A DNA stretch of 51,817 bases from Thermoanaerobaculales bacterium (GTDB lineage: Bacteria > Acidobacteriota > Thermoanaerobaculia > Thermoanaerobaculales > Sulfomarinibacteraceae): NCBI GenBank assembly GCA_024763555.1, contig JANTFG010000002.1, forward strand, positions 1-51,817, in the 5' to 3' direction. The notes below the pieces were generated by a model. It had not been told where the DNA came from and did not search any database. It worked only from the letters and a program-made list of their open reading frames with translations. The first letter of the stretch is position 1. The number at the start of each line of letters is the position of its first letter. Made by a program: the position numbers and the translations under genes. Below, piece after piece: positions 1-49,332 of this stretch.

Positions 1-819
1 ATCATCAAGGCGAATCCTTCGGATCAGATCACAATCCGACGCCTCTGGGTCTGCCTCGAAGGCGGCGGTTTTGCGGATGACCCTGAGAGCGCCCCGACAT
101 GGCAAATGAGTCAGACAGGATTCGGGGGCCGGGTTCTAAGCATAGACGGCGGTGAGTTGCTCTCGGGAACCGAGGCTTCATTGGGAGCGGTCGCCCTGAA
201 GGTGGAGGGTGGGGAGGTTATCGCCAACGCACGCATCGCGGATATCTCAATGGGGGGCATCTGGCTGGGAACCCCGTTTGGCCAGGGCCAACTGATCAAT
301 ATTGGAGCCGAGCCCTTGGTTGGAGGTTCTCACCTGCCGTGGCTGGGTGGGTGCGTCCGTCAACCCTGCAGTAGTACCGGCCCCGACTACTGGTTCTTCC
401 CTTATTGGAATGCGTACCGAAACAACATCGGCCTGATCAATCCGAACCCCGCGGCACAGCGTTTTTCCGGAGTCGTGCTCGCCTTCGGAAATGATGACTC
501 GACAAATTGGGTGGAACTTGGAGAGGACGGAGTTGAACCTGAGTCCTTTTCGAAGGAGCTTCCACCTTACGGCTGGACCCAGGTCCATTGGGTTTCGACA
601 CGGGCCTATGGGGGCACTATTTGGGGAGAGTTAAGGGTTCCTCATGCCGGTTTTCTTATCAGTCTGACACCGGATTCCGACCTGCCCTACTATGCCTATG
701 CCTCGGTGATCTTCTCCCCTGACCCGTACTCAGACATCCCAGCCTTCAACGACCCACTCTTCATACCAGCGAAACCCGGATACGTCGCACCCTTTGATTG
801 GACCGGGTCTGCACCATGA
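1..819 (+). CDS. hypothetical protein, 5'-truncated at window edge
   Basis: Frame 1 has no stop from nt 1 into the listed 106..819 ORF, so the gene probably starts upstream of the window. No family is recognised from the translation. Confidence 0.5.
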   Translation: MIKANPSDQITIRRLWVCLEGGGFADDPESAPTWQMSQTGFGGRVLSIDGGELLSGTEASLGAVALKVEGGEVIANARIADISMGGIWLGTPFGQGQLINIGAEPLVGGSHLPWLGGCVRQPCSSTGPDYWFFPYWNAYRNNIGLINPNPAAQRFSGVVLAFGNDDSTNWVELGEDGVEPESFSKELPPYGWTQVHWVSTRAYGGTIWGELRVPHAGFLISLTPDSDLPYYAYASVIFSPDPYSDIPAFNDPLFIPAKPGYVAPFDWTGSAP

Positions 820-1169
820 GCGGCCGGAGCCGGACTGAGAAAGAAGGCAGTTTGTTTCGAAGTGAAAAACAGGGGATGACAGAAGGCATTCTTTGTCGCA
901 AGGTCCCCTGAGTTACGCGTTGGGGTGAAATCCCCGTCAGGAATTCGAAGGCCTGGAGAATATTCTCTATCAAGAGTCAAGCACTCTCTTGGGAAATTTC
1001 CTTGGTGTCCTCGTTGTAAGAGGGGCTGTGGGAAACCTGGCGGGAGGAGCGAGGCGATCTCCCAGAAGGTTTCTGATAGGCGTCCATAGCCCCCGGAGGA
1101 CCCGGCAATTCCACAGCTCCCTCGCTTTGCGGCTTTCTCAGTCCCATACCGGGGTCCAAAGGCAGAGGG

Positions 1170-1351
1170 CCGGAGCGGGAGCGGAAGCAGGAACCGAAAC
1201 CGGAACCGGAGCAGGGAGCCGAAACCGGGGCCGGAGCCGCACATCCGGAGCCGATGCCGGAGCCGGTGCGGGCGTGGTTCTCTGAGCGGAACGAGGGTGG
1301 GATGATGGCTGTCTAATTTCCTGAACCGCAGCAGGGATCCGAGACCGGAGC
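1170..1351 (-). repeat. composite intergenic element, degenerate copy (R1): hexamer array plus conserved boxes
   Basis: The CCGGAG-type degenerate hexamer array spans 1170..1271. CCGGAGCCGCACATCCGGAGCC (1231..1252) is the reverse complement of the GCTCCGGATGTGCGG box seen at 23253..23273 and 37155..37175. CGTGGTTCTCTGAGCGGAA (1273..1291) is the reverse complement of TTCCGCTCAGAGANCCACG at 7199..7218. Confidence 0.55.
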
Positions 1352-2166: not shown

Positions 2167-5100
2167 TCATTCAGACTCACCGGATGGAAGTTCCACCGTG
2201 AACACCGTCCCCTCACCGGGCCTCGACCGGACTTTAATCCTCCCCTTCTGCTCGCGGACCAGCCGACGAGCAATGGCCAGACCCAGGCCCGTACCCCCCG
2301 CACCGGAGAAAAAGGGCTCGAAGACCTGCTCCTGAACCTCGGAGCTCATCCCGGCGCCGTCATCCTCCACCGAGATGAGGATGGAGTTGCCCTGATCATA
2401 CCGCCTCACCCGGACCAGGATCCTGCTTGCACCGACCGCATGGCGGGCCGCATTGTGGACAAGATTCAAGAGCACCTGGTGGATGGCCGCCCTGTCGGCC
2501 CAGACCGCAGGCAGGTCCGGCTCGACCTCTCTTTCGACAGGCAATCCAACCTCTTCGTGAACCCCGGCGCTTTCCACAAGGTGGGCTACCAGTTCGAATG
2601 GTCGACATTGAACAATGTTCAATTCGTGCGGGCGCCCGAGTTCAAGGAGATCATCGACAAGCCGGTGCATCCGGTCCGTCTCACGTTCGAGAATGCCGAG
2701 TTCCTCCCCGGTCGAAGGATTAGCTCCAAACCTCCTGCCGAGGAGGTGCGTCACCGTTCGAATGGCAAAGAGCGGATGACGAATCTCGTGGGAGACACCG
2801 GCAATGAGGCGCCCGTAGGCGGCCATCCGCTCACTCTCTCTGAGGGCGGCGATACCCTCATCAACCCTTTGTTCGAGGGTGCTGTTGATTTCAGCCAGCT
2901 CCCGGGTTCGGAGATCGACCAGTTCCTCCAGACGCTTCTGCCGGCGGCGCAAGATTCCCACTCGGCCTCGATTGGCGATCCAAACTGCAAATGCGGCCAC
3001 CAACCCCATCAGAATCACGAACCACCTTGAATCGACAAAGGCGGGCCGAAGCCTGAAGGCAATTTTCAGCCCGGGCTTGGCCCAGCTCATTCCCCGAAGT
3101 CCATTCTGGATCTGGAGAGAGTACTCCCCCGGAGGCAGACTCGCAAAATAGATCCGGCGATCCTTCTCATCAAGTTCCACCCATCGATCGTCGAGTCCAC
3201 TCAGTCGGAATCGAAAATGGAGCTGATCCCCCAGATCAAAGTCGATGCTCGAGAATTGGAGCTCCAGTTCCCCGCGCCCCGGAGAAATGTCGAGCAACAA
3301 TCCCTTACCCGGCGGTTCATATTTCCTGCCGTCCACCGCAAAACTCTCAATTTTCAGGCGCGGCGGGTCGAACACCACCTTTGCGGGATCGACCACCGCC
3401 GCACCCTCGGCAGTGGCAAACCAAAGCCTGCCCCGATGGTCTTTCCATGCAGAGGGCTGCTGACCGCCATTGCATTCTCTTCCGATCAGTCCGTCCGCGA
3501 CTCCGAGAAGACGACAGTCAACGGTCTTTCGCTCACCTGCCACCACTTTCTCAAGCTCATCCCGCCTGACCGCAAAGACGCCGTGATTGCTGCTCATCCA
3601 GAATCGCCCGCCATCGTCCTCGATCATTGAAAAAACACTGTCGTCACAGAGCCCTTCGGCGGTTGTAATGCTGATGACCCGCCCTTCGTCAAAGTGAAGC
3701 AAGCCGCCCATGTGGGTTCCGATCCATACACCGCCACGATCATCGGGAAGCACCGTCACGGCTGCGACCGGAGGCAGGCCATCCTCTTCGCCGTAGAGGG
3801 TTCCTTCGCCATCGTGCCATCGGGCAACACCCCCGAGTCCGTTCGCCAGCCACATCTCATCGCCACTCGCCCCGATCCATGTCGGGTTCATGCCGCCGAG
3901 CGACGGAACTCTTTCCAGGCTTCGGCCATCGAATCTGTAGACCGACTGCAGGACGCCCAACCAGAGAGACCCCGCCTCGTCGCGCGTCATCGACAGCACG
4001 ATGGGAAGTGTTTCGCCGAGGGAATGAAAAGCTCCCCCTCCGCCGATAAAGACACCATCGCCTGCGGTTCCAACCCAGAGCCGTCCGAGGGAATCTTCAC
4101 CGAGCGAGAGGATGTGCGTCGATTTCAAGCTGGAAACGGGTATCATCGCACCGTCGACAAAACGGTAAAGACCCCCGCCGGCAGTCCCGATCCACTGGCG
4201 ATTCCTCGAATCCTCGAACCCACAACTCACGGAAGCTACCCGCAAGCCGTCTGTCTCCGAGTAGACCCGGACCGGGGCTCGGAAGAAACGGACGAGTCCC
4301 TGATGAGCCGTACCAAGCCACAGTGTGTCATCGTCCTCGACCATCAGAGACAGGATCTGGACCGATTCCCAGGCGCCCCCGGGATGCCAGCTCTCCAGAC
4401 CTCCTTCAGCGCCGGCTCGGACAATGCCTCCCCGAAGATATCCGACCCAGACTGAGCCCTCCTCATCACAGAGCATCGCCCCGACGCGGGCCCCCGAAAA
4501 ACGTTCCGGCAGCTCCAGACGCCTGAGATCGTCCGTCCCGGAGGACATCCAGATATCGCCCGAAGAATCCGCGGCCCAGAGTGTGCCACGGCTGTCGAAG
4601 GCAACATGGGTAAAGGTGTCCTCACCCTCTCCCGTGGGGAAGGGTTTCCGGATATGCCAACTCCCCCCAACCCGGCAGCGGACCGAGGTTCCGGCCGCAC
4701 AAAGGACCTCACCATGCTCGGTCAGAGAGGAAAACCATTCCTTTCCGGAACTGTCAGCTTTGGCCACTGATTTTTCAACGCGGAAGACTCCCTCGGCCGA
4801 GCCGATCCAGACCGTCCCGGTATGATCGACAGAGAGGGTCTGGCCCCTGCCCAGCGATTGGTCCGCTTCAGTGAGAACCTCCACAAAACCCTGCCGGTTT
4901 CCGCGATAGAGAGCATGACCGGTGAGCACCCACAGCCTATCGTGATCTGAAGCCAGGGCGATGACACTGCCGTCTCGAAGTCCGCTCCGGGAGACGAGCG
5001 CAATAGACTCGAAACGCACACCATCGAAACGCGCCAGTCCCTCTTGAGTGCCCACCCAGATATAGCCGTCCGAGCTCCGTGCAACTGCCGTCACCGAGTC

Positions 5101-6855: not shown

Positions 6856-6894
6856 CGGGCGAAGTCACGAAGGGTATGAGCTGAGATATCCCAA

Positions 6895-7296
6895 CCGGGC
6901 CCGGAGCAGGAGCAGGAGCAGGAGCAGGAACCGATTCCGGAGCCGGACCCCTCAGCCGAGAGACAAAACTGAGACGGCAAAGTCGTACTCGAACTCGTCG
7001 AAACATCCCACGAAGCCACCTGCCTTCCACCGGAGCCGGGACCGGAGCCGATTCCGCGGCCGGATGCCACGACCGAGAGGCGATACCGGGCCTGCGGATT
7101 CGTACTCGCAGTGGTCGGAACAGCCCACGATCACACCGGGCTCGGCCACCGCCTCCCTGCTCCGGTTCGGGATACCAGGGCGGCCCCCGGCCCACGTATT
7201 CCGCTCAGAGATCCACGGCCGGCCCTGCTCCGGTTTGCCGCTCCGGCTCCGGCATCGGTTTTCCGCTCCTGCTCCGGATTGCCGCTCCGGATCCAG
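6895..7296 (+). repeat. composite intergenic element, most complete copy (R2): inverted hexamer arms, tandem core
   Basis: (GGAGCA)x4 lies at 6903..6926. The left arm 6915..6946 is a near-perfect reverse complement of 7243..7275. Core copies lie at 6955..7020 and 7071..7165. The TTCCGCTCAGAGATCCACGG box is at 7199..7218. The 7030..7167 stretch is about 85% identical to 23080..23217 by hand alignment. Confidence 0.85.
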
Positions 7297-16827: not shown

Positions 16828-17325
16828 ATGATGTTCTGGAAAAAATATGCTGTTTCAATCGTGGCTTTCGGTGTTCTGGTCACCGCCTGCTGCTTCACCG
16901 CCGATATGGCCAATGCCGCCGAAGCGATCGCGAGCGGAGAAACAAACTGGGACGGAGTGACGGTGAATGTCATGAGCGTCGTCCGCAAGGGCCGGGTCCT
17001 GACTGTCAAGTTCGCCGCAGTGAACGAGGGAGAGACGGAGCAGACGGTCGGTTTCGGTTTCACCGGAAAACAGAACTCATGCTACGCCGTGGATGAGGAG
17101 AGCGGCACGAAATACTATGTGTTGACCGACAAGGAAAATCATCCCATCGCATCGGCCGATGAATTCGTCGGCAATGGTGCACGGGGACTGAAGAGAGCGA
17201 TCCAGCCCGGAAAGACACTGCGTGTATGGATGAAGCTCCCGGCGCCGCCGCCCGATGTCAAGACCATTTCTCTCTTTCTCAACGAAACGGAGCCCATTGA
17301 AGATGTGCCGATCACGGACAAGTAA
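16828..17325 (+). CDS. small secreted hypothetical protein
   Basis: It has a signal peptide (MMFWKKYAVSIVAFGVLVTACCFTADMANA). GGGGAGG lies just upstream of the ATGATG at 16828/16831. No family is recognised. Confidence 0.55.
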   Translation: MMFWKKYAVSIVAFGVLVTACCFTADMANAAEAIASGETNWDGVTVNVMSVVRKGRVLTVKFAAVNEGETEQTVGFGFTGKQNSCYAVDEESGTKYYVLTDKENHPIASADEFVGNGARGLKRAIQPGKTLRVWMKLPAPPPDVKTISLFLNETEPIEDVPITDK

Positions 17326-18097
17326 CACAGCACCCGGCCCGGTACTCCTGGTGTTCCTGGTCCTGATTCTCGGATGCGGCGCTTCCCCGCACGACGCCCA
17401 ATCCCCTCAAGGCCCGGGAGCACAAGATGGGCAACAGCTCGCAGCCGTTGAATCCTCCAGTCCGGAAGCAGAGCAGAGCCTCAGCCCACCCGCTTCTCCC
17501 GCTTCTCCCGCTTCTCCCGCAAAGGCCTTGATCAACTGGGAGGATCCCGAGCCGCCGGAAGCTCAGGCCCTGGCCGAATCCCTCGTCGCCGAGCCCTTCA
17601 ACGAGGACAAGACGAGCCGCCTCGTCATGCACATCACCACGCTGCTCAATCAGACATCAGGAATCGAGGGCTTTGCCACGAGCCTGAGCCCGAAGGCAGC
17701 CACGCTTGCGGATCGTCTCGACGCCCTTCAAGCCGAGGAAAGCGAAACCGAGATCAGGATCCGACTCTCAGGCGCCATCCTTTTTGACTTTGACTCCTCA
17801 GCAGTTCGCCCCGATGCCGAAAGAACCCTGGGCGAACTTCTTGAGATATTCAAGAGCTTCCATGATCGTCCCATCCGAGTCGAAGGGCACACGGATTCCA
17901 TCGCCTCGGAAAACTACAACCAGAAACTCTCCGAAGAAAGGGCACAATCCGTGGCCCGATGGTTGATCGCTCATGGAGTTCGTCAGGGAAGAATCAAAAC
18001 CCTCGGTTACGGCGAAAGCCGTCCCCTTGCCGATAACACAACTGCCGAGGGCCGCCAGAAAAATCGCAGGGTGGAAATCATCATCGAGAAGAAATGA
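17303..18097 (+). CDS. OmpA-family lipoprotein (peptidoglycan-associated)
   Basis: The C-terminal OmpA-like domain reads RVEGHTDSIASENYNQKLSEERAQSVARWL ... NRRVEIII. A lipobox LILGC lies in the N-terminal signal. The start is set at ATG 17303, which overlaps the upstream gene. Confidence 0.8.
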   Translation: MCRSRTSNTAPGPVLLVFLVLILGCGASPHDAQSPQGPGAQDGQQLAAVESSSPEAEQSLSPPASPASPASPAKALINWEDPEPPEAQALAESLVAEPFNEDKTSRLVMHITTLLNQTSGIEGFATSLSPKAATLADRLDALQAEESETEIRIRLSGAILFDFDSSAVRPDAERTLGELLEIFKSFHDRPIRVEGHTDSIASENYNQKLSEERAQSVARWLIAHGVRQGRIKTLGYGESRPLADNTTAEGRQKNRRVEIIIEKK

Positions 18098-18155
18098 GGA
18101 CAACAGGTAGAAAAGGCTAACCCAGTCCGGCGACAGAAGACCGCAAAGCCGAAAA

Positions 18156-18495
18156 ATGTCCTTCCTTGCTCCCCTGTGGGATGGACGGAAAGATGAATAT
18201 CACGCTCTGGATTTTCAGTCCCGGCGAAGGACCCCGGTCATCGAAAACCGTCTCTGAGTCGAATCGAAATCTCCTTTCCCGACCCCGGTTTCGGCATCGG
18301 TTCCGGCACCGGAGATGCGGCTCCTGCTCCGGTATGGGTTTCCGTGTAGCGCTTGGCTCCGCCCGCGAAGTCGACGTCCACCTCAGGCTTTTGCAATCCA
18401 TCGGGACGGTTGATCGTCAAAAAGCCACCAAGGCCGTTGAGCTTTTCGACCGCGTTCGGGCGATGACCTGGAGGTTGTTGCATCCACGGCGGTGA
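18156..18495 (+). pseudogene. decayed four-helix-bundle protein gene (23S rRNA intervening-sequence protein family) interrupted by a repeat array
   Basis: The C-terminal fragment FRVALGSAREVDVHLRLLQSIGTVD...VELFDRVRAMTWRLL (18343..18495) matches the family consensus around IA.GS..E...HL.LA..LG. An N-terminal fragment GRKDEYHALDFQSRRRTPVIEN (about 18186..18251, different frame, ending at a TGA stop at 18258..18260) resembles FPKEERYGLTSQLRRAAVSIPSN. About 50 nt of array sequence lies between the two fragments. Confidence 0.45.
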
Positions 18496-18550
18496 GGGGC
18501 CGCAGCCGGAGCCGGATCCGGAGCAGCAACCGGCACCGGAGCCGGTGGGA
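18284..18550. repeat. paired repeat arrays (R3) flanking the four-helix-bundle gene fragment
   Basis: The left array 18284..18335 (..CCGGCACCGGAGATGCGGCTCCTGCTCCGG) is GCTCC-type. The right array 18497..18548 (CCGGAGCCGGATCCGGAGCAGCAACCGGCACCGGAGCCGG) is the GGAGC type of opposite polarity. Confidence 0.6.
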
Positions 18551-18551
18551 T

Positions 18552-18750
18552 CGTGGTTCTTTTAGCGGATTGCGGGAGCGATGATCGCGGTTTCTGTTGC
18601 TGAAACCCGAACAGGGAGGCCGTTGCCGGAAGCTAAGCGGTCGTGGGAATTCCGACCACTGCGAGTGTGATTCTGTCGCCTCAGCCTCGCCTCCCGGGCG
18701 TCAGACCGGGCTCCGGAATCGGTTACGGTTGGCGGCTCCCGATCCGACTC
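18552..18750 (-). repeat. composite intergenic element, inverted copy of the core (R4)
   Basis: The reverse complement aligns with 7050..7218. Shared blocks are CCGATTCCG..GCC, GGAGGCGA, ACTCGCAGTGGTCGGAA, CCCACGA, CCTCCCTG.TC.GG.TT and TCCGCT.A.AGA.CCACG (18552..18570). Confidence 0.7.
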
Positions 18751-18764
18751 CTCGATTCGCTGCT

Positions 18765-19178
18765 TCAAACTGCCCGGGTCTTCAGTCCCGCCTGGGTCGC
18801 TGCTGCGAGCTGGCGCCTGTCCGATGAGACAAAAAGCTCTGCGCCCCACTCTACGGCACAGGCAACATGAAGCGCATCGAGCGTTCGTACCGGGACTCCC
18901 TCGAGAATACTGATCGCTGACAAAATGACCGCTGTCGTCAGTTGAACGATATCCGCGTCACGAACATCCTCCATCAATCGCCGCTTCGCCAAGGCGTACT
19001 GAGTCTGCGTCAACGATCCATCACGACGGCGTCGATTCATGGCAGATACCAATTCGGGAACACACAGGACGGCCAGACCGATTTCGGAAGCATCGAAACA
19101 GATGGACTCGACCTCCTCGGATCCTTCTTCGTCCACAAAGCGCTTCGCGAAGGAAGAAGAATCAAGAAAAATCTTCAT
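18765..19178 (-). CDS. vapC: PIN-domain ribonuclease toxin (VapC-like)
   Basis: MKIFLDSSSFAKRFVDEEGSE starts with the PIN acidic residue. A conserved D lies in VRTLDALHVA and the fragment FVSSDRRQ is present. The start is set at the internal ATG 19178. It overlaps the antitoxin gene by 17 nt. Confidence 0.8.
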   Translation of the reverse strand: MKIFLDSSSFAKRFVDEEGSEEVESICFDASEIGLAVLCVPELVSAMNRRRRDGSLTQTQYALAKRRLMEDVRDADIVQLTTAVILSAISILEGVPVRTLDALHVACAVEWGAELFVSSDRRQLAAATQAGLKTRAV

Positions 19179-19401
19179 GCTCTCGCTCGTCCAGAATCGT
19201 CGCGGACAGTCCCTCACCCTTTGTCGTCAATCGAAGGGCCGGCCGTCTCCACGAGGGCAATCTCCTCTCGTCTACCTTTATCGGAGAAACTCTGGCAATC
19301 GGCCGACCGTGCCGAAGGACGACAAGCGTTTCGCCCCCTTCGACATCGCTCAGCATTCCCGACGCATGATTTCGGAATTCGGTCAGGGTCACAGTTCTCA
19401 T
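19162..19401 (-). CDS. type II antitoxin, Phd/YefM-like
   Basis: MRTVTLTEFRNHASGMLSDVEGGETLVVLRHGRPIARVSP is a typical Phd/YefM N-terminus. AGGAGA lies upstream of ATG 19401. Confidence 0.8.
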   Translation of the reverse strand: MRTVTLTEFRNHASGMLSDVEGGETLVVLRHGRPIARVSPIKVDERRLPSWRRPALRLTTKGEGLSATILDEREHEDFS

Positions 19402-19479
19402 AGGCCTTCTCCTCTGTACGCTATTGTACAATTTCTTGTACAGAATTTCAAACCCTGACCACTCCACGAGACCTTCCCC

Positions 19480-22792: not shown

Positions 22793-23035
22793 GCACTTCC
22801 CCACCCGAACTCTCAACAAAATTGAGAGCTGGAAAAATGACGCCGGAAACAGCGCTCACACACTGCCGTTGGGATGACCGGAAGCGCCTTTGAGCAGTCG
22901 ACTCCGGACTCACCTGCTCCAAGCCGGCCGGAATTCTCTTTCTCTGCATCTCCCTGGGGACAAACAGATCAGACGGAGCCGGAAAGCGGAAGGAAAGTTC
23001 CAGCCACTTCGGGAGCCGCAAATCGCCAAACGGAA

Positions 23036-23330
23036 CCGGGGCCGGATCCGGAGCAGGAGCCGCCAGCTGAATCCGCTTCCGGAGCCGGGGACCGGAGCCG
23101 CTTCAGCGGCCGGGTGCTGCGCCCGAAAGGCGAAACTGAGCCTGCAGAGTCGTACTCGTCGTGGTCGAAACAGCCCGCGATCACACCGGGATCCGCCACC
23201 TCATCCCTGCTCCGGTTTCAGACATCAATGCGCCGCCCGGCCCACGGATTCCGCTCCGGATGTGCGGCTCCGGGATCCGATTCTTGCTCCGGATTACCGC
23301 TCCGGTATCGGATTACTTCTCCGGCCCCGG
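23036..23330 (+). repeat. composite intergenic element, full copy (R5)
   Basis: It has a perfect 11-nt terminal inverted repeat: CCGGGGCCGGA at 23036..23046 and TCCGGCCCCGG at 23320..23330. The core 23080..23217 is about 85% identical to 7030..7167. The GCTCCGGATGTGCGGCTCCGG box is at 23253..23273. Confidence 0.85.
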
Positions 23331-23355
23331 ATCGTCGCCCCGAAATCGCTGCCTC

Positions 23356-36928: not shown

Positions 36929-36955
36929 CTCGATGATATACCAAAAGGCCCTGGA

Positions 36956-37224
36956 TCGGGGCCGGAGTCCGGATCCCGTTGCTGCTCCCGCCCCTGCCGC
37001 TTCTCCGGCTCCGGCCTCGGTTTGCCGTTTCGGATCTCAAGACATGCTCAGCGACAGTGAAGGAAGCAGGATCAGAATCAGCGGCAGTCTCAGGCGCAAT
37101 GCGCGTTCAGCCTGTTCCATTCAGGAACCCACCAACGCGTCGGCCCCGGATTCGGCTCCGGATGTGCGACTTCGGCCCCGGCTCCCTGCTCCTGCTCCTG
37201 CTCCTGTTCCTGCTCCGGCCCCGG
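36956..37224 (+). repeat. composite intergenic element, copy with weak core (R6)
   Basis: The ends TCGGGGCCGGA (36956..36966) and TCCGGCCCCGG (37214..37224) form a 10/11 inverted repeat. The GCTCCGGATGTGCGACTTCGG box is at 37155..37175. (CTCCTG)x3 at 37189..37206 is the reverse-complement hexamer of (GGAGCA)n at 6903..6926. Confidence 0.6.
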
Positions 37225-37425
37225 CGCCAGACCTGACATGGTGTGAATCTCGCAGCGATTGGCATGACGAGTTCCGGAAACCCTTTGTTCACGGCAATGC
37301 TCCGGGGTAACATGCTGCTGATATCTTTCGCAACCAATTCATGCACCAGGGCTTGCGCAGAGCACAGTGTCCTCTCAGCATCATCCAGTTTCCGGCCGAA
37401 GGGAGGATGAGCTACACTGTTCGGC

Positions 37426-49087: not shown

Positions 49088-49186
49088 TGGCGGAAGCGCA
49101 AGGGAATCGAACCCTCCGACCGACCCTCGCCGGGCCGGCCCAACGGATTTGAAGTCCGCGGAAGCCACCAGGCCCCATGCGCTTCC
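49088..49186 (-). tRNA. selC: tRNA-Sec (anticodon UCA)
   Basis: The 99-nt minus-strand sequence is GGAAGCGC AT GGGGCC TGGT GGCTTC .. GCGGA CTTCAAA TCCGT .. GAGGG TTCGATT CCCTT GCGCTTCC G CCA. It has an 8-bp acceptor stem, a 6-bp D stem with a 4-nt loop, a UCA anticodon, a long variable arm (CCGGCCC/GGGTCGG stem), a 5-bp T stem and an encoded CCA. Confidence 0.9.

Positions 49187-49256: not shown

Positions 49257-49332
<76 letters not shown>

Follow-up and report, generated by a model that had tools for sequence, protein, structure and literature searches.

A truncated four-helix-bundle gene among GGAGC/GCTCC repeats in a Thermoanaerobaculales contig, and the fold-back cassette of its intact relatives

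The gene remnant and its truncation point

The stretch of 51,817 nucleotides analysed here (the window), from a contig of a Thermoanaerobaculales bacterium, contains an intergenic gap of 667 nt (18098-18764) holding a repeat-rich element in which the C-terminal half of a gene of the four-helix-bundle family is found (4HB; PF05635/TIGR02436, the protein family of the intervening sequences, IVSs, of 23S rRNA). An earlier note, made by reading the letters alone, had recognised this half gene between two repeat arrays of opposite polarity and had described the site as an ordinary intergenic region; this description is correct, since the element occupies a convergent gap of ordinary gene arrangement between an OmpA-family gene and a PIN/PhdYeFM pair, and the window contains no rRNA, the Rfam scan giving two tRNAs only, both far from the locus. 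The locus is very probably a 5'-truncated pseudogene of a multicopy 4HB cassette, lying beside a further fragment of the same cassette family which has no open reading frame (ORF). From left to right, the gap contains a GCTCC array, the truncated ORF, a GGAGC array, two modules named A and B, and a second GCTCC array:

18284-18335 (+), left GCTCC-type array, period 6/12 (TRF 18285-18312, period 12), abutting the truncated ORF
18339-18495 (+), 4HB gene remnant, codons ~74-124 (helices 3-4) and TGA stop, frame intact
18497-18548 (+), GGAGC-type hexamer array (TRF 18499-18545, period 6, 7.8 copies), starting two bases past the stop
18549-18630 (+), module A, a leader module (A/B nucleotide profile 18550-18711, E=5e-39)
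18637-18705 (+), module B, an antisense copy of 4HB ORF nt ~27-87, which is the outer left arm of the fold-back in intact cassettes
18706-18750 (+), right GCTCC-type array, direct repeat of the left one and inverted partner of 18497-18548

The remnant is read on the plus strand as F (18340-18342) followed by RVALGSAREVDVHLRLLQSIGTVDRQKATKAVELFDRVRAMTWRLLHPRR, with the stop codon at 18493-18495; the frame 0 translation is FRVALGSAREVDVHLRLLQSIGTVDRQKATKAVELFDRVRAMTWRLLHPRR up to the stop, with the F at 18340. The limits previously proposed, 18343..18495, had the stop right and the start one codon late. Both curated families gave matches below their cut-offs (PF05635, E=0.0036 and 17.9 bits against 33.8, in register over profile positions 63-104 of 106; TIGR02436, E=0.0022 and 18.2 bits against 24), because only half of the domain remains, so that Pfam alone would have been weak support. 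The identification was secured by a subfamily hidden Markov model (HMM) of eight close relatives, which was searched against all six frames of the entire window and matched the remnant with E=5e-29 (profile positions 65-124 of 124), with no second match in the window, and by a nucleotide profile of four close genes, which aligned 18339-18495 with E=3e-33 (nhmmer). A protein search retrieved 185 relatives, the best intact ones being of 124 aa and 80-84% identical over the remnant half (E to 1e-18), and identities of 80-94% were measured with P0001-P0008. The intact relatives exceed the curated cut-offs (59-61 bits against 33.8 for PF05635 and 60-62 bits against 24 for TIGR02436), and the solved structure closest to them is 2gsc, the pentameric four-helix-bundle protein XCC0516 (E=9e-7). 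The complete four-helix domain, of about 105-125 aa, is absent at the locus, where helices 3-4 alone are kept; judged from its sequence, the remnant is a pseudogene fragment of a family member and not a member gene.

The contigs of other copies part from the window at 18343-18349, and upstream of this point they run ...GGAAAAGACCGGCAGTACCACTTT, coding for GKDRQYHF as in the intact ORF, which sets the truncation point at codon ~74. The junction is unique to the locus: it is crossed by a 5.6-kb contig at 22x, other copies having the intact ORF there, and the depth of the left array (25-40x) likewise indicates that the junction is essentially unique. Codons 1-73 and the hairpin which precedes them in intact cassettes are missing, and the GCTCC-type array occupies their place; a covariance model of the hairpin (R1), run with filters off, found no remnant of it in the window (best E 0.23) and no match at the element loci.

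An N-terminal fragment had also been proposed, at 18156-18257 and in another frame, separated from the C-terminal one by about 50 nt of extra array sequence. The corresponding peptide, GRKDEYHALDFQSRRRTPVIEN (frame +2, 18186-18251), gave no BLASTP alignment to an intact relative and scored -1.5 bits against the subfamily HMM (best domain -1.9), the other two frames upstream of 18339 scoring -1.9 and -2.7. Nucleotide profiles of the 5' part of the ORF (nt -30..225) gave nothing significant in 18098-18338 (best E 3.5-7.8), permissive pairwise DNA alignments stayed inside the shuffle range, and 18132-18293 has a depth of ~22x in the source metagenome, that is, of single-copy sequence. The N-terminal fragment was abandoned, and the extra array sequence between the two fragments falls with it. 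The resemblances noticed by eye ('DEYH' in frame +2, 'RSGFSVPAK' in frame +1 and 'MNIT' at an ATG in frame 0) are mutually incompatible and were treated as chance, and the box variant CCGGAGATGCGGCTCC reported at 18306-18320 has 3 mismatches and stands at chance level (6 found, 3.6 expected). We also observed that frame 0 is open at 18121-18492 for exactly 124 codons, which is the length of the intact 4HB ORF, only the last ~52 being homologous; this is probably a coincidence in GC-rich DNA.

The remnant could be regarded as a live short gene, making a two-helix half-protein from a start at 18166 (TTG), 18181/18193 (ATG) or 18334 (ATG) to 18495. The 124 codons are open, the homologous 52 have neither frameshift nor stop, the remnant is conserved at protein level, with a dN/dS of 0.08-0.13 against intact relatives, and gene callers do annotate similar truncated forms, namely P0001 (69 aa) and P0116 (68 aa). 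In these two NCBI-called proteins, however, translated array sequence is joined to a 4HB C-terminus (at residues ~74 and ~91), and the N-terminal stretches of both, like that of the window ORF, are unrelated translations of arrays. Moreover, the product would be half a bundle, without helices 1-2, the Shine-Dalgarno sequence, start codon and hairpin of the cassette are all absent, and a recent truncation also predicts a low pairwise dN/dS against intact genes. On balance, we consider a live gene very unlikely.

Arrays, leader modules and ORF-less copies in the window

The two arrays which had been described as bracketing the ORF, GCTCC-type at 18284-18335 and GGAGC-type at 18497-18548, were both recovered by TRF and as inverted matches, 78-87% complementary. 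The sequence from 18497 to 18750 is one copy of a recurring unit (GGAGC array, A, B, GCTCC array), which is also present at 7294-7030 (-) and 23332-23078 (-), and in part at 1166-1350 (+). Its right GCTCC array, at 18706-18750, stops 15 nt short of the stop codon of the PIN gene. The other loci of the window are:

6887-7294 (-), ORF-less copy: GGAGC array, A, B, GCTCC array, second B, GCTCC array (E=2e-39; second B, E=4e-8)
23020-23335 (-), ORF-less copy: GGAGC array, A, B, GCTCC array (E=5e-39)
1166-1350 (+), partial copy: GGAGC array and module A alone (E=1e-5)
36950-37234 (no strand assigned), arrays-only locus (GGAGC-like, then CTCCTG/GCTCC-type) carrying the GCTCCGGATGTGCG box, with no A/B and no 4HB trace

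The copy at 6887-7294 fills a convergent gap and begins 11 nt past the stop of YqeC, and that at 23020-23335 begins about 20 nt past the stop of a gamma-glutamyltranspeptidase gene; both start 11-25 nt after stops of same-strand genes. In the arrays-only locus the box GCTCCGGATGTGCGa lies at 37155-37169, and exact copies of it are found at 1237-1251 (-) and 23253-23267 (+). The three degenerate copies, at 18, 7 and 23 kb, carry a GCTCC-type array where the hairpin and the ORF 5' end belong. The ends of the element are degenerate hexamer arrays of opposite polarity, in which no sharp termini or target-site duplication were recognised, there being no empty site for comparison. Module A showed no common fold stable across seven copies (z -0.7 to +1.2); a role as an intrinsic terminator was rejected since, apart from one terminator-like site in the relative L053, no stable fold is shared. 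At the locus, Rfam 15 gave no match even at E<=10.

The repeats also affect assembly: the near-identical strain contig L070 (17.6 kb) ends inside the right GCTCC array (L070 8282-8336 correspond to window ~18765-18711), and many high-depth contigs of 65-200 nt cover the element in four metagenomes.

The neighbouring genes, the spacer on the left side and the two tRNA genes of the window are:

17255-18097 (+), OmpA-family gene (PF00691, E=2e-26), left neighbour
18098-18283 (no strand assigned), spacer after the OmpA-family gene, single-copy, depth ~22x as in the unique flanks
18765-19467 (-), PIN/PhdYeFM toxin-antitoxin pair (type II), right neighbour, adjoining the element
49088-49186 (-), tRNA-Sec gene, 76 bits to RF01852, divergent from tRNA-Ala
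49257-49332 (+), tRNA-Ala(GGC) gene, divergent from tRNA-Sec

The spacer showed no relation to the 4HB gene by HMM, no hairpin by covariance model and no A/B by nucleotide profile. Besides OmpA, PIN and PhdYeFM, two unassigned ORFs lie around the locus. Within the OmpA-family gene, at 17489-17520, a perfect (CCCGCTTCT) x3.6 repeat codes for PASPASPASPA.

The intact cassette and its fold-back

In the closest intact relatives, a hexamer-period array is followed by A, B, a hairpin (P1-P3), an ORF of 124 codons, a further hexamer array and A again. In L053 the order is GGAGC-type array (161-223), A, B, hairpin, ORF (484-858), GGAGC-type array (865-997) and an A-like start; this order recurs in L054 and L055, and L001 shows hairpin, ORF and 3' array. 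A GGAGC/GGAAC-type array follows the ORF stop directly in all four intact relatives of the lineage (L001, L053, L054 and L055), so that the array at 18497-18548 is the regular 3' flank of the cassette, retained at the truncated locus. The nucleotide profile of A/B matches the leaders of L053 (223-353) and L054 (22-139) with E=1e-21 to 2e-23, so that the ORF-less A and B of the window correspond to the 5' leader of a 4HB cassette; because B repeats part of the ORF in inverted orientation, the A/B which accompany the window arrays derive from the cassette. The suggestion of the earlier note that the repeat elements travel with 4HB genes was thus borne out. A separate long inverted repeat (cctagaggtccggccggaaaccc ... 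gggtttccggccgggcctctagag), unrelated to the arrays, was seen upstream of the intact cassette of L001 (590-790), and an Acido-Lenti-1 small RNA (RF01687, 61.5 bits) at 1053-1098 of L021, from a Sulfomarinibacteraceae metagenome-assembled genome (MAG), ~1.9 kb upstream of its 4HB cassette.

The cassette family is multicopy in Acidobacteriota (MAGs of Thermoanaerobaculia, Holophagae and Sulfomarinibacteraceae) and in the hydrothermal-vent community to which the window belongs, with 10-15 or more loci per MAG. In the vent metagenome X1, the summed depth of contigs with a match of >=90% to the remnant was 650-700x over 18348-18509 against 22x in the flanks, and A, B and the arrays were found at 130-440x; the hairpin and the ORF 5' end reached up to 137x in the same metagenome runs, indicating that intact cassettes exist in the same community. 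Intact paralogues are under purifying selection, with dN/dS of 0.09-0.19 at dS 0.8-1.1; those within one MAG are old (dS 0.8-1.0), and the family is not a recent transposon burst. No recurrent neighbour gene, reverse transcriptase (RT) or transposase was found within 3 kb of the 67 loci examined, and no rRNA in the 26 relative loci scanned with Rfam. Integration linked to tRNA was rejected, a tRNA being nearby in just 2 of 46 loci, as were a phage origin, no relative being present among viral contigs, and membership of a defence system, given the lack of a PADLOC match.

Arrays of hexamer period are found on the flanks of cassettes from many lineages, and their units differ (CAGCGA/TCGCTG, GTCCGC, GGTCCC). 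In L053 the arrays on both sides of the ORF have the same polarity. When flank polarity was scored at 39 loci (45 were examined and 6 were too short), the upstream and downstream flanks matched directly in ~10 and in inverted orientation in ~8, the rest showing no match. A fixed polarity was rejected, and the arms of opposite polarity seen in the window are one of several states of the family.

This bears on the proposal that the locus is a stem with the ORF in its loop, as in rRNA IVSs, where the arrays would pair in a read-through transcript and enclose the ORF remnant in a loop, the stem being a substrate of RNase III and the layout possibly functional, for example in processing or 3'-end formation for the OmpA-family gene. 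Folding of 18284-18548 paired the two arrays over about 50 nt in the minimum free energy (MFE) and centroid structures (z=-2.09, with 8 of 200 shuffles as good), and the same arms still paired in a 496-nt context (RNAfold), although z was there -0.34 against dinucleotide shuffles. Pairing of the arms thus stood, as structures go; an energy beyond that of shuffles did not. Moreover, 18497-18548 pairs equally well with 18706-18750 (z=-1.96), and since low-complexity arrays of opposite polarity pair automatically, their pairing tells little. In favour of such a stem-loop, inverted arrays surround the ORF also in some distant intact cassettes (L034 directly; L004, L007, L008, L009, L013, L021 and L038 by score), and in known IVSs the S23p ORF lies in a loop between terminal inverted repeats at which RNase III cuts (PMC4990558). 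By contrast, the closest complete relative, L053, has direct arrays, the polarity is mixed over the family, and the left array of the window is unique to the locus and abuts the truncation. The stem-with-ORF-in-loop could not be retained as the defining layout, and we consider a functional stem-loop of this kind unlikely.

Alternatively, the arrays may be an independent intergenic repeat family, acting as microsatellite-like landing pads downstream of genes, in which 4HB cassettes preferentially insert or recombine. The association would then reflect a choice of target and not co-mobility, the truncation being due to array expansion or to recombination into the gene. This reading can account for the arrays-only locus (36950-37234) and the locus with array and A only (1166-1350), for arrays beginning 11-25 nt past host-gene stops, for array units which vary by lineage around a conserved cassette core, and for the inconsistent polarity upstream and downstream. 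However, the array starts directly at the 4HB stop in 4/4 intact relatives of the lineage, and A and B, the latter being an inverted ORF copy, derive from the cassette. Landing pads overlap with the explanation as a truncated cassette and do not exclude it; as an account in their own right we hold them possible, with considerable doubt.

The structure that is conserved among intact cassettes lies elsewhere. In L053 and L054 the leader, once reverse-complemented, can be aligned with ORF nt 1-87 (z=16). In the hairpin alignment (A4), of 41 loci from Thermoanaerobaculales, Holophagae, Sulfomarinibacteraceae and Methylomirabilota-labelled MAGs and from metagenomes, the inverted repeat between leader and ORF start covers nt 1 to ~25 in 41/41 intact loci and reaches nt 82-96 in ~12 of them, and between its arms stands an apical hairpin with near-invariant GTCAAGG / CCTTGAC. 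RNAalifold returned 32 pairs, 23 of them with compensatory changes; paired cells amounted to 94.6%, against 77.6% in shuffles and at most 53% in slid controls, and cells changed on both sides were 212 against 55 expected, a value which none of 500 shuffles attained. What is conserved in the family is thus a stem of leader against ORF start, and not of array against array. No tested locus lies in rRNA, so that the term 'IVS-like' fits the protein family and not the architecture. Six intact loci gave no Rfam match on the hairpin. A sigma-70 promoter in the conserved CCTTGAC motif was also considered and rejected, a consensus scan finding none in L053 or in the window locus.

In P1, the 5' strand, CATGrTCACCTCC..GTTCAT (CATG.TCACCTCC..GTTCAT), has as its pairing partners the start codon, an internal GGAGG and a second ATG, and on an mRNA P1 would sequester the translation start. 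The hairpin has A.C or C.A mismatches in 27 cells, spread over 13 pairs and ~20 different loci, and G.U in 3 cells. This excess of A.C over G.U, which is the reverse of what is expected for a structure selected on the sense RNA, hints at folding of the antisense strand, which would occur as an antisense RNA or as single-stranded DNA. The complementarity of the outer arm B to the ORF is ~75%, with many transversion mismatches.

Antisense-strand folding would also suit retro-mobility, in which an RNA intermediate of the cassette is copied by an RT encoded elsewhere, the 4HB protein acting as a cofactor like Avd; the 5' truncations and 3' arrays would be by-products of cDNA synthesis that stopped early or slipped, and the hairpin would be selected on the cDNA (antisense) strand. 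PF05635 is the Pfam family most commonly linked to diversity-generating retroelements (DGRs) and resembles their accessory protein Avd (PMC10053308), and the arrays do lie at the 3' end. The partial copies in other genomes and metagenomes retain the 3' end like that of the window, all those found keeping it and none being N-terminal only, though one search pattern lay in the N-terminal half. On the other hand, no RT or recurrent partner lies within 3 kb of the 67 loci examined, the paralogues within a genome are old (dS ~1), unlike what recent retro-transposition would leave, and the inverted array at the junction is not predicted by a simple 5' truncation. Furthermore, several apparent truncations are insertions of other small elements or divergent N-termini: the 4HB ORF is interrupted by other small repeats at codons ~66-74 in L067/L069 and L048, and the L048 element is also found at codon ~87 in L049. 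We find retro-mobility hardly probable.

The repeats which interrupt or abut 4HB ORFs are of two kinds, both hairpin-ended. One, of ~100 nt and ending in GGCACGCCCTRAAGGACGTGCC, is placed at codons ~66-74, the same spot as the window junction; the other, of ~105 nt, with GGTGCCAGGCACC...GGTGCCTGGCACC, has its site in L048 at codon ~68 and in L049 immediately 5' of codon ~87. Their sites, in unrelated lineages, are L067 644-1092, L069 ~960-1069, the 3' flank of L068, L048 3001-3254, L049 ~2940-3000 and the 3' flank of L028. The central loop region of the ORF, coding for GRGRSGKDR, may be a hotspot of insertion or recombination.

Origin of the locus and relation to known systems

The locus would be, in the explanation which we prefer, a dead insertion of a 4HB cassette without a function of its own. 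The arrays would serve as flanks prone to recombination and slippage, and deletion of the long palindrome formed by leader, hairpin and ORF 5' end would give rise to ORF-less derivatives such as those at 6887-7294 and 23020-23335. Loss of the palindrome, followed by a repair event copying the neighbouring array in inverted orientation, is a plausible cause of the GCTCC array found at the junction. In intact copies, the fold-back may gate the initiation of translation, or may be a structure for recognition or processing.

Several points weigh against parts of this interpretation. The open frame and low dN/dS imply either that the truncation is recent or that the half-protein is still used; the ~30-fold depth is a metagenome-level figure, which fits one genome as well as several related populations; and no tested model explains how a GCTCC array came to stand at the junction. 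As for the hairpin, the mismatch asymmetry counts sequences and not independent events, and the outer arm B could be a duplication in decay and not a helix under selection. Both the silence of the remnant and the strand read in intact cassettes are predicted from sequence alone.

Proteins of the same family are encoded in IVSs of 23S rRNA, where a terminal 28-bp stem encloses the S23p ORF and is cut by RNase III; the IVS is regarded as selfish, the function of its ORF is unexplained, and the origin and mobility of IVSs have stood as questions since the early 1990s (PMC4990558). Like the IVSs of Coxiella burnetii (helix 45) and Leptospira, the cassette encodes a PF05635/TIGR02436 protein and is a small element (~0.4-0.9 kb) whose ORF is accompanied by long complementary sequences, with ORF-less variants. 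Unlike IVSs, which lie in helix 9, 25 or 45 of the 23S rRNA, the locus is intergenic, with no rRNA in the window or in the relative loci scanned; the conserved stem of the cassette links an upstream leader to the ORF start and not the element ends around the ORF; hexamer-period arrays flank it; and it is present at 10-30 copies per genome or community, with an ORF under clear purifying selection.

With Avd of DGRs (PDB 4DWL; CDD cd16375) the cassette protein shares a related four-helix-bundle fold and family. However, no RT or recurrent partner is near the 67 loci examined (template and variable repeats were not searched for), and the cassettes stand alone, with no match in viral contigs. The ORF-less copies recall repetitive extragenic palindromic sequences (REP), bacterial interspersed mosaic elements (BIME) and miniature inverted-repeat transposable elements (MITE), being multicopy, 180-400 nt long and intergenic just past the stops of convergent genes, with inverted-repeat potential and a tendency to break short-read assemblies. 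They differ from these in deriving from a protein-coding cassette, B being the inverted ORF 5' end, and in their ends, which are degenerate hexamer arrays where neither defined terminal inverted repeats nor target-site duplications could be recognised.

Type I toxin-antitoxin loci of the hok/sok kind have fold-back leaders with cis-antisense RNAs, and their product is a small membrane toxin. In a similar way, the long leader of the cassette pairs over the Shine-Dalgarno sequence and start codon, several diverged paralogues are found per genome, and there is the hint of a selected antisense-strand structure. The cassette product is, by contrast, a soluble four-helix bundle of 124 aa with no PADLOC match, and an antisense promoter or transcript of the cassette would be hypothetical.

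The remnant itself is ordinary; for the architecture of its parent cassette, no description was found in the searchable full-text literature under the family names. Through the remnant, the GGAGC/GCTCC repeats of the window can be traced to a parent that codes for a protein, and a cassette form of the IVS-protein/Avd family comes to light which belongs neither to rRNA nor to DGRs. In practical terms, short-read assemblies of Thermoanaerobaculia-like MAGs are broken at these repeats, which also yield spurious small ORF calls, such as P0001 and P0116.

As a tentative suggestion, the cassettes might be an undescribed autonomous module of Acidobacteriota, composed of an Avd/IVS-type 4HB gene, a covarying fold-back made from its own inverted 5' end and forming on the antisense strand (as antisense RNA or single-stranded DNA/cDNA), and lineage-specific hexamer arrays, kept in 10-30 diverged copies under purifying selection with no linked RT or transposase; rRNA IVSs with S23p ORFs would then be the special case in which such a module landed in an rRNA helix. 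The 4HB family is widespread and its structures have been solved, its function being still to be found, and an autonomous module of this kind, if true, would offer a route to the function of the IVS protein and to the way in which IVSs move.

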